64,000 bases of DNA. It comes from Thermodesulfobacteriota bacterium. GTDB lineage: Bacteria; Desulfobacterota; Desulfobulbia; Desulfobulbales; SURF-16. The notes under the pieces are model-generated. The model did not search any database. It was not told where the DNA came from and saw nothing but the letters and a program-made list of their open reading frames with translations. The DNA lies in assembly GCA_049323935.1 (NCBI GenBank), contig JBMONN010000009.1:11216-75215 (forward strand), given 5' to 3'. The stretch's first letter is position 1; each line of letters starts with the position of its first letter. The position numbers and the translations under genes were made by a program. Positions 58,809 to 60,038 of the stretch are shown one piece after another.

Positions 58809-59369
58809 ATGTCATTGATAAAATTCGGCTGGATTCTGTTGCGGGAAGGACTCATCCAGAGAAAACAGATGGAGAATATCCTTAATCTCCAGGAGCGGCA
58901 CCAGGACCGGCTTTTTGGTGAACTGGCCGTCCACTATTTCGCTGTCCCCGAAGAGGAGGTCGAGGCGGTTTTCGCCAATCATGTTCTGCTTCCCTTCTGC
59001 CGCAACTGGTTTCTGGAACAACTGACACGGCGCATCACCATTACCGCGCTGGAGGGGCGGCCGTTCATCGTCGCTGTTGATCTTGTCCTGGCTTCTTTTA
59101 CCCGCAGGATCATCCGCGCCACCACCTATACGCCGGGTGACCGGGAATGCGTCCCGGTGTCGGGCAACGTCAGTCTGCTGGTCAACGGCACCTTTGCCGA
59201 AGTCGTCATCCGCACCGCCATCAACGAATCCCTCATCTTTGCCGATGTGCAGTTTGATTTTGTCAGGGAACGATTGGAGATGACGCTGGTCAATCCTCAT
59301 CTCTTCACCGAGGCAAAGATGCGACTCAATCAACTGCATAAAAAACATGCAGCAACCCAAATGCCATAG
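58809..59369 (+). CDS. Hypothetical protein with T2SS-E/MshEN-like N-terminal helix motif
   Basis: KFGWILLREGLIQRKQMENILNLQ resembles the LG.ILL..GLI...QL..AL..Q motif. The rest is unassigned. Start uncertain (58752 or 58809). No clear RBS. Confidence 0.45.
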   Translation: MSLIKFGWILLREGLIQRKQMENILNLQERHQDRLFGELAVHYFAVPEEEVEAVFANHVLLPFCRNWFLEQLTRRITITALEGRPFIVAVDLVLASFTRRIIRATTYTPGDRECVPVSGNVSLLVNGTFAEVVIRTAINESLIFADVQFDFVRERLEMTLVNPHLFTEAKMRLNQLHKKHAATQMP

Positions 59370-59388
59370 TGACGCTCTGGAGTCCGTG

Positions 59389-59604
59389 ATGCCGGAAACG
59401 ATAAAACACTTTCAACAGTATCCCTTCAAACAGGGAGACAAGATCCACATCATTGACGGTCGGCGCCGGGGTGACTGGCTGGTGGCCGCGGTTGACGAGA
59501 AAAAGGTGACCCTGCGTTGCCCGGTAAGCGGGCGGGAATTTTCCTGGGACCGCTTCTGTTATTTTGTCACGGAAGAGGAGCAGCCGTGGCCGCACCGCAC
59601 ATGA
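59389..59604 (+). CDS. Small hypothetical protein (71 aa) coupled to the CULT gene
   Basis: GGAG 6 nt before ATG 59389. Its stop overlaps the next ATG (ATGA at 59601-59604). Confidence 0.45.
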   Translation: MPETIKHFQQYPFKQGDKIHIIDGRRRGDWLVAAVDEKKVTLRCPVSGREFSWDRFCYFVTEEEQPWPHRT

Positions 59605-60038
59605 TGAGGGCAACCAGCCGGGATTACCGGTGTCCTCTGCCTGCCCTGGCACTCAATAAGAACGGCGTCCGCCAGGGCAGGGTTCGACCAGGCCGGCAAA
59701 CCGACGAGCAAGGTGATGACGGCACGGGGAACGGCTGGTTCTGCTGCCGGGTCTGCCGGACGAAAATCGTTCCCCGTTCCCGCATGATCGAGGTGAACGG
59801 CAGCCATCTCCATGTCTTTGCCAACCCCCATGGCAAGGTTTTCGAGATCAGCTGTTTTTCCGCGGCGCCCGGCTGTGTCGATCACGGGGTGCCGACCACG
59901 GAGTGCACCTGGTTTGCAGGCTGCGCCTGGCGTTTTTCCCTCTGCGTCACCTGTTCGGCCCATCTTGGCTGGCGCTATCAGTCCCCCCTGTCCGGTGTTT
60001 TCTGGGGGTTGATCCTGGCCGCGCTTGTTGAGTCGTGA
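59601..60038 (+). CDS. Cereblon-like CULT domain protein
   Basis: CCRVC ... [14 protein letters not shown] ... [24 protein letters not shown] ... FWGLILAAL. Two CxxC zinc pairs and the W-x5-W-x13-W-x-Y aromatic cage have cereblon spacing. Confidence 0.75.
   Translation: [145 protein letters not shown]

Follow-up and report, generated by a model that had tools for sequence, protein, structure and literature searches.

Drugs of the thalidomide type, like most clinical protein degraders, are directed at the CULT pocket, and in the literature that we searched no paper addresses why bacteria keep an almost identical CULT pocket. A truly conserved bacterial partner would be a direct handle on the function of the bacterial CULT proteins, and the locus described here raises the question of whether it provides one. 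It lies in a 64,000-nucleotide (nt) stretch of contig JBMONN010000009.1 from a Thermodesulfobacteriota bacterium (the window, meaning the whole stretch of DNA that was analyzed), where three consecutive open reading frames (ORFs) encode proteins of 186, 71, and 145 residues that we call A186, B71, and C145. A first-pass annotation had read them as a tightly coupled three-gene cassette ending in a CULT (cereblon family) protein and had proposed that a conserved small partner could reveal the bacterial function of the pocket. We find that C145 is, by its sequence, a CULT protein, and that it likely belongs to a lineage-specific operon in which A186 and B71 are optional accessories of one clade and not general CULT partners. 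The proposed partner is not general, the A186/B71 adjacency says little about bacterial CULT proteins at large, and follow-up is narrowed to one Desulfobulbia clade; the locus offers only a narrow, clade-limited hypothesis on the function of the bacterial CULT pocket.

Assignment of C145 to the CULT family

When C145 was searched against all PDB chains with phmmer, only cereblon entries were significant. The model bacterial member, MsCI4 (4V2Y), matched with E = 2.3e-20, and human and mouse CRBN matched at about 1e-13, over C145 residues 40/47 to 144, a similarity far above what chance would give. BLASTP aligned 99 residues of C145 and MsCI4 at 40% identity, and the alignment has just one gap, of one residue. 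With the residue register taken from the phmmer alignment (C145 residue n corresponds to MsCI4 residue n-25), the two CxxC pairs and the W-x5-W-x13-W-x-Y cage described earlier were read at C49/C52 and C115/C118 and at W104-x5-W110-x13-W124-x-Y126, and an alignment of 24 CULT homologues (A1) showed these motifs to be invariant. A1 shows the three cage tryptophans without exception, and they recur in all 90 CULT sequences compared, bar one truncated copy; every complete CULT sequence from 88 further loci retains them. C145 also carries the NPxG hairpin motif defined for CULT (PMC4287342, PMC4449219).

The definition of the CULT family goes back to 2015 and describes single-domain proteins, mainly delta-proteobacterial (PMC4287342). 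We found 47 homologues of C145; NCBI applies the name "cereblon family protein" to some of them, and a protein with 94% identity to C145 bears it. NCBIfam release 20 returned no match to C145. A scan of 185,579 species genomes yielded 413 loci with CULT relatives. Because of the PDB matches, the three-tryptophan cage, the CxxC pairs, and the NPxG motif, C145 is on sequence grounds a genuine, ordinary cytoplasmic single-domain bacterial CULT protein, and it is a newly found member of an already known family. From the identity to 4V2Y and the near absence of gaps, we infer that it adopts the beta-tent fold.

Residues 1 to 48, which precede the first CxxC pair, contain 7 Arg and 8 Gly, and the Arg/Gly-rich extension noted previously is therefore real. 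An extension of 35 to 60 residues is usual in nearly all of the Desulfobacterota homologues, and thus it is not a special trait of C145. Many of these extensions (loci L003-L087) carry a hydrophobic-hydrophobic-F/L-R/K motif 28 to 32 residues before the first CxxC (for example LFFR, LLLK, or HLFRVPP), after which comes an acidic low-complexity linker; C145 has a weaker form, LALNK, and MsCI4 is without this extension.

Conservation of A186 and B71 beside CULT genes

Synteny around CULT was counted in the best 80 of the 413 genome loci. B71 was found upstream of CULT in 11 of the 80 and A186 in 5, as judged by tblastn and an iterated hidden Markov model (HMM) search, which leaves 69 loci without B71 and 75 without A186. 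When every ORF of the 80 loci was searched with jackhmmer for B71 and A186, no remote copies turned up beyond the tblastn matches, and all-against-all clustering of the CULT neighbors and of the B71 neighbors revealed no family beyond clade-level synteny. No neighbor family of CULT occurred in more than 13 of the 80 loci. ComM and ArsC, which have no evident link to CULT, were each kept in 13 loci of the same clade versus 11 for B71, and because these unrelated genes are as widely kept as B71, the B71-CULT adjacency does not exceed background synteny.

Viewed from B71, the linkage is again confined. When 80 metagenome loci were collected with a narrower B71 alignment, CULT followed only in the 8 closest, and among 78 unique full-length B71 sequences 15 were CULT-linked, 50 had no CULT in at least 600 nt downstream, and the other 13 lay on contigs too short to tell (65 informative). 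Solitary B71 genes adjoin MazG/hisI/hisG, a two-component system, or YidD. In neighbor-joining (NJ) trees the A186/B71-linked CULTs form one clade and the CULT-linked B71s form one clade, and therefore the linkage arose once. Within the linked clade, CULT stands alone in L011 and L014, follows A186 without B71 in L005 and L171, follows B71 in 6 genome loci, and follows A186 and B71 in 5. These counts do not support, as a general rule, the idea of a conserved small partner that reveals CULT function: the neighbors are largely not conserved at other CULT genes, most B71 copies have no adjoining CULT, and either upstream gene can be missing within the clade.

The spacing of the three genes was compared across the same relatives. 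The ATG of C145 overlaps the stop codon of B71 as had been described, and the A186-B71 gap is 19 nt, so the cassette is tightly packed in the window; a gap of 19 to 27 nt is found only in the nearest relatives, however, and widens to 137 to 155 nt in other clade members. B71 and CULT sit close together in 18 of 19 loci, with a candidate CULT start within about 30 nt of the B71 stop. The -4 overlap occurs in 3 of the 19 other loci, candidate spacings are most often +10 nt, and in one locus about 460 nt separate the two genes. Scans of the A186-B71-C145 stretch gave no convincing internal terminator or promoter, the matches being at shuffle level only. Because the genes share a strand, a 19-nt gap, and a 4-nt overlap and have no convincing internal signal, C145 is probably co-transcribed with B71 and translationally coupled to it.

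Other CULT lineages have other neighbors, namely MFS transporters, PlsY and UvrC, or AraC and EamA, and in the Desulfovibrionaceae an APH-HAD operon plus CULT paralogues. In Desulfovibrionaceae/Solidesulfovibrio genomes a canonical CULT gene is followed by one or two same-strand CULT paralogues of 137 to 157 residues (HMM E values of 1e-29 to 1e-37), as seen in L042, L052, L054, L056, L063, L069, L162 (5001-6660), L163 (5001-6816), and L168 (4001-5776). In the six paralogues translated from L162, L163, and L168, the first cage tryptophan and the NPxG hairpin motif are gone, but both CxxC pairs remain, as do cage tryptophans two and three. In the 3 loci with gene calls, the APH-HAD hydrolase operon lies divergently upstream of the tandem CULTs. 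Outside the clade of the window, the "partner" that recurs most often for a bacterial CULT gene is another CULT gene.

Properties of B71 and A186

Homologue searches and alignments showed that both upstream ORFs are real conserved proteins, as had been proposed. B71 has 112 homologues of about 70 residues in Desulfobulbia, including Ca. Electronema, and alignment A2 reveals invariant residues F8, G16, R26, G28, D29, W30, L42, C44, P45, F56, C57, and P68, which include two cysteines and fall in the motifs GDW, RCP, and FCY. Structure prediction was confident for B71: the AlphaFold2 (AF2) model has a predicted local distance difference test (pLDDT) score of 91.6 and shows six strands in a small barrel. 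Foldseek found nothing significant in the PDB, the best match being the Spt5 KOW domain (E = 0.12, TM 0.49); the A2 profile found nothing significant among PDB sequences (best E = 0.0095), and the Pfam model SH3_1 scored 14.3 bits, below its cut-off of 22.9. An HMM scan of 1.84 billion representatives returned 95 clusters, and two long repeat proteins matched the B71 HMM weakly. A fusion of B71 or A186 to CULT or another domain was looked for and discarded, since the representatives are essentially all short, stand-alone proteins. B71 is a real, well-conserved orphan family whose modeled small beta-barrel shares its general topology with KOW and SH3 barrels.

A186 is much rarer, with 7 homologue clusters in 5.8 billion proteins, and its first 63 residues are almost invariant (alignment A4). 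Its AF2 model reached a pLDDT of 74.6 overall; helices at residues 2-12, 18-25, 29-43, and 48-75 have pLDDT values of 49 to 60, and the C-terminal part is modeled as a long antiparallel sheet with a helix after it. Neither fold nor profile (A4) comparison gave a PDB match, and no relatives could be detected for the C-terminal 120 residues. An MshEN domain consists of two tandem 24-residue motifs, RLGxx(L/V/I)(L/V/I)xxG(L/V/I)(L/V/I)xxxxLxxxLxxQ, with a 5-residue spacer (Wang et al. 2016, PMC5013675). The strict RLG...Q motif is absent from A186; a first copy satisfies 11 of 11 constrained positions of a relaxed motif and is kept in all seven homologues, and a second copy satisfies 8 of 11 in either register, its losses being, depending on the register, Gly3 or Arg1, the turn Gly10, and hydrophobic 17 or the terminal Gln. 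A 53-residue region matched the NCBIfam model NF053729 (MshE-related c-di-GMP motif) with 26.3 bits (E = 4.7e-6), below the cut-off of 38, and this model was matched by all seven members of the family; matches of PilF GSPII to A186 were weak (E of about 0.6 to 1.8). Hence the MshEN-like N terminus noted at first holds up as a resemblance, with its first copy complete, and stays below the threshold of the family. On the strength of the motif, the A186 N terminus possibly binds cyclic di-GMP (c-di-GMP).

We found A186 in L001, L002, L005, L006, L008, L010, L081, L085, L086, L171, and L172. All copies with a readable downstream context precede a CULT gene, in some cases with B71 in between; the contig of L172 stops just past A186 and seems to be continued by L005, which comes from the same assembly. 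Because the A186 family is so small, a recent birth of the gene at a CULT locus explains its occurrence only beside CULT equally well.

A clade-specific variant of the pocket

An NJ tree of 90 CULT domains placed C145 in the A186/B71-linked clade of 24, in which two cysteines adjoin the pocket. C102 is found in all 24 members and C108 in all but one. C102 takes the position of MsCI4 F77 and human H378, and C108 that of MsCI4 Y83 and human Y384. Other bacterial CULTs have Phe, His, or Tyr at position 102, and their position 108 is variable (F/Y/H/T/C/M/Q). Y83 anchors the second and third flexible regions of the MsCI4 pocket, and Y384 is one of the residues replaced in the binding-deficient YW/AA mutant (PMC4449219). 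The tyrosine matters functionally in both MsCI4 and CRBN. Because position 108 varies across the bacterial CULTs, on this comparison the family does not strictly require the anchoring tyrosine in bacteria.

With 40% of its aligned residues identical to MsCI4 and the cage, zinc, and hairpin residues kept, C145 most likely works as follows: zinc held by the two CxxC pairs would stabilize the beta-tent fold, and the three-tryptophan cage would take a small uracil-like or cyclic-imide-like group, probably folding around the ligand as in MsCI4. Since C145 has cysteines at the F77 and Y83 positions, ligand binding is therefore something that we infer and do not take as assured.

Functional link or historical neighborhood

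In the reading that we consider likely, a Desulfobulbia lineage would carry its CULT gene as the last gene in a short run on one strand, coupled to B71, and in a sub-lineage A186 with its MshEN-like N terminus would precede B71 and CULT; the arrangement would have arisen once and then been inherited vertically, with B71 leading an independent life elsewhere as a solitary gene. To judge from the gene arrangement, a functional partnership of B71 or A186 with CULT is possible, and such a partnership plainly does not hold for bacterial CULT proteins in general. Several observations weigh against this reading. The short B71-CULT junction persists across CULT proteins down to 54% identity, and A186 is exclusively upstream of CULT, both of which a real functional link would produce too. 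C145 has a cysteine in place of the anchoring Y83/Y384 tyrosine and another at the F77/H378 position, so that its ligand specificity or pocket stability may differ from that of MsCI4. In addition, the Pfam model PF03226 (Yippee-Mis18) matched C145 with only 20.6 bits, short of the gathering score of 26.6.

A186, B71, and CULT might instead be a dedicated functional module, with the two neighbors as a bacterial CULT domain's first physiological partners, a view that we regard as unlikely. Here A186 would sense c-di-GMP, B71 would be an adaptor produced at a fixed ratio to the CULT protein through translational coupling, and the CULT cage would recognize either a small ligand or a protein end that has been damaged (a cyclic imide). 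The tight same-strand spacing with its ATGA overlap and the short junction in nearly all of the loci speak for such a module, but CULT genes of the clade occur alone, with A186 only, or with B71 only, and B71 is mostly solitary in unrelated contexts. Likewise, A186 is known only upstream of CULT genes (about 10 loci), and CULT-linked B71 and CULT are each a distinct clade with its own signature residues; yet 69 of the 80 CULT loci carry neither A186 nor B71, and unrelated flanking genes are as widely conserved. The complete first MshEN copy, the match of all seven A186 homologues to NF053729, and a PilZ gene conserved 2.5 kb upstream are offset by the degenerate second motif and the NF053729 score below cut-off. 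That A186-(B71)-CULT is a c-di-GMP-gated receptor module in which A186 and B71 bind the CULT protein seems to us distinctly unlikely on the sequences at hand, and the same low chance attaches to its coupling the cage ligand (which could be a metabolite of the uracil or imide type, or else a protein end bearing a cyclic imide) to second-messenger signaling; if true, it would supply the first physiological partners and a pathway for a bacterial CULT domain. A purely historical adjacency, by contrast, is a serious possibility, although we stop short of calling it probable: CULT would have landed beside an independent small housekeeping gene, B71, in one ancestor, and, with no functional relation whatever (a serious possibility to the same degree), the short junction would survive merely because nothing disrupted it. 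Each linkage has a single origin, ComM/ArsC synteny is equally conserved, B71 is solitary elsewhere, one locus tolerates the 460-nt gap, and the base composition of the cassette is like that of its neighbors, all of which fits this history. It fits less well with the absence of A186 away from CULT genes and with the ATGA or +10 junction, which implies shared transcription and probably coupled translation, usually a mark of related function. Loose co-regulation takes the remainder after the dedicated module and the historical adjacency.

Two further alternatives concern C145 itself. There is only a vanishing chance that it is not a CULT protein but a yippee-, Mis18-, or MsrB-like beta-tent zinc protein. 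Yippee-Mis18 is its sole Pfam match; that model is the only one in Pfam for this fold family, was built on yippee and Mis18 and not on CULT, and was matched by all 24 homologues (best E = 1.8e-7). No yippee, Mis18, or MsrB chain appeared at E<=10 in the PDB search, where the significant matches were all cereblon or MsCI4 and a RIG-I chain was absent from the match list too, and the three-tryptophan cage and NPxG that define CULT are both found in C145; the PDB search thus refutes this alternative. A changed function of the C145 subfamily, in which C102, C108, and a near-invariant C92 would make up a redox-sensitive or second metal site, is very unlikely, as is the corresponding role of a thiol/redox sensor in place of an imide/uracil reader. 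C102 is fixed in the clade and C108 nearly so, and both are largely absent from these positions elsewhere, although C108 also occurs in unrelated CULT clades. The neighbors are an ArsC-family selenoprotein and a nitroreductase, but the nitroreductase gene is absent from L005 and L171, and cysteine-rich proteins are frequent in anaerobes. The beta-tent relatives include the thiol enzyme MsrB (PMC4287342); set against this, C145 retains the three cage tryptophans, Y126, NPxG, and both CxxC pairs. Returning to the lineage-specific operon with optional accessories, the leads that remain are A186, seen only beside CULT, the C102/C108 pocket variant, and the tandem arrays in Desulfovibrionaceae of CULT paralogues that have no first cage tryptophan.

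Organization of the locus

The coordinates of the features are collected in Table 1.

Table 1. Features of the A186-B71-C145 locus, in positions of the window
Feature	Position	Strand	Description
A186	58809..59369	+	186-aa protein; ORF call
MshEN-type 24-residue motif, copy 1	58821..58892	+	A186 residues 5-28, KFGWILLREGLIQRKQMENILNLQ
Degenerate MshEN-type motif, copy 2	58908..58982	+	A186 residues 34-58
GGAG ribosome-binding site	59379..59382	+	6 nt before the B71 start codon; sequence reading
B71	59389..59604	+	71-aa orphan small beta-barrel protein (predicted); ORF call
ATGA overlap	59601..59604	+	B71 stop shares 4 nt with the C145 start codon
C145	59601..60038	+	145-aa single-domain bacterial CULT (cereblon family) protein; ORF call
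N-terminal extension, residues 1-48	59601..59744	+	Variable; rich in Arg/Gly
First CxxC zinc pair, C49/C52	59745..59756	+	MsCI4 C24/C27; invariant in A1
Hairpin motif N75-P76-H77-G78	59823..59834	+	N, P, and G invariant in A1
Clade-specific cysteines C102, C108	59904..59924	+	Adjoin the pocket; NJ-tree clade comparison
Aromatic cage W104, W110, W124, Y126	59910..59978	+	MsCI4 W79, W85, W99, Y101
Second CxxC zinc pair, C115/C118	59943..59954	+	MsCI4 C90/C93; invariant in A1
Nitroreductase gene	60150..60761		111 nt 3' of C145

The three ORFs are preceded by a divergent intergenic region. The start of B71 at 59389 is consistent with the aligned homologue N termini; longer starts at 58752 (A186) and 59347 (B71) were rejected as the homologue N termini fit the shorter forms, and one at 59517 (C145) was rejected as they fit the shorter form roughly. 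A thiamine pyrophosphate (TPP) enzyme of the acetolactate-synthase type comes after the nitroreductase gene, before which the promoter/terminator scan found one promoter-like site at 60080-60109. Rfam found no RNA family over 58200..60300, hence no c-di-GMP riboswitch, and the PADLOC defense models gave no match to A186, B71, or C145 at E<=1. We found no second copy of any of the three genes in the window. The base composition of the cassette resembles that of the neighboring genes, and it bears no sign of recent transfer. For both B71 and A186, a Thermodesulfobacteriota metagenome-assembled genome (MAG) encodes a protein with 100% identity, and the nearest loci carry the labels Desulfobulbia, Desulfobulbaceae, or Desulfurivibrio.

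Upstream, the opposite strand encodes an ArsC-family selenoprotein, ComM/YifB, a short TauE-like protein, and a PilZ protein. The ArsC-family gene (58311..58655, minus strand), divergent from the cassette, has an in-frame TGA at 58620..58622 and reads MKIDWGYFRKG*TSCAKAQ; the plain ORF list gives only its 88-residue C-terminal part. Because the TGA sits at the cysteine position of the L006 and L011 homologues (FRKGCxSC), this gene very probably encodes a selenocysteine-containing ArsC/Spx-like protein, and the protein matches NCBIfam NF041106, "ArsC family (seleno)protein", with E = 5e-21. The stand-alone PilZ-domain protein (55974..56333, minus strand; Pfam PilZ, E = 1.6e-16), 2.5 kb upstream of the cassette, keeps its synteny in 12 to 14 related loci and is a possible second c-di-GMP receptor near the MshEN-like A186. 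The TauE/SafE-like membrane protein (56415..56795, minus strand) covers only the first 111 of 237 profile positions and appears to be a TauE of half length; the longest ORF for it, 56415..57251, runs into the 3' end of ComM (56768..58303). A 398-residue antisense ORF (59559..60755, minus strand) covers the CULT and nitroreductase genes. Comparable antisense ORFs lie opposite CULT in many loci; we took the one in the window for a shadow ORF arising in GC-rich coding DNA.

Comparison with known systems

The model bacterial CULT protein is MsCI4 (MGR_0879) of Magnetospirillum gryphiswaldense, for which some 60 PDB entries exist besides 4V2Y. C145 resembles it in being a single domain and in having the same CxxC pairs, NPxG hairpin, and W-x5-W-x13-W-x-Y cage. 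It differs in about 24 additional N-terminal residues, in the cysteines that replace Phe77 and the anchoring Tyr83, and in its origin, an anaerobic Desulfobulbia MAG in which the gene shares a probable operon with two uncharacterized small genes. Glutarimide and C-terminal cyclic imides are known ligands of CRBN. C145 is homologous to the thalidomide-binding (CULT) domain of CRBN (residues about 318 to 442) throughout, with the same zinc and cage residues. Unlike CRBN, it has neither a LON domain nor a DDB1-binding region, has no ubiquitin system to work with, and has cysteines at the H378 and Y384 positions; any role of C145 as a "degron reader" would therefore need another output. Uridine and thalidomide are also ligands of the CULT domain of CRBN (PMC4449219).

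The two neighbors resemble known systems more loosely. Compared with the MshEN/GSPII domains of Vibrio cholerae MshE and Thermus thermophilus PilF, A186 fits the relaxed motif fully at residues 5-28 and has a spacer of 5 or 6 residues, depending on the register, followed by a second helix-rich copy, but this second motif is without three key positions and A186 has no ATPase or known output domain. B71, with its predicted six-stranded small barrel, is closest to the KOW/SH3-like barrels, its best matches being Spt5 KOW and SH3, none of them significant; in contrast to these, it stands alone, occurs only in Desulfobulbia-like bacteria, and has GDW, RCP, and FCY motifs of its own.

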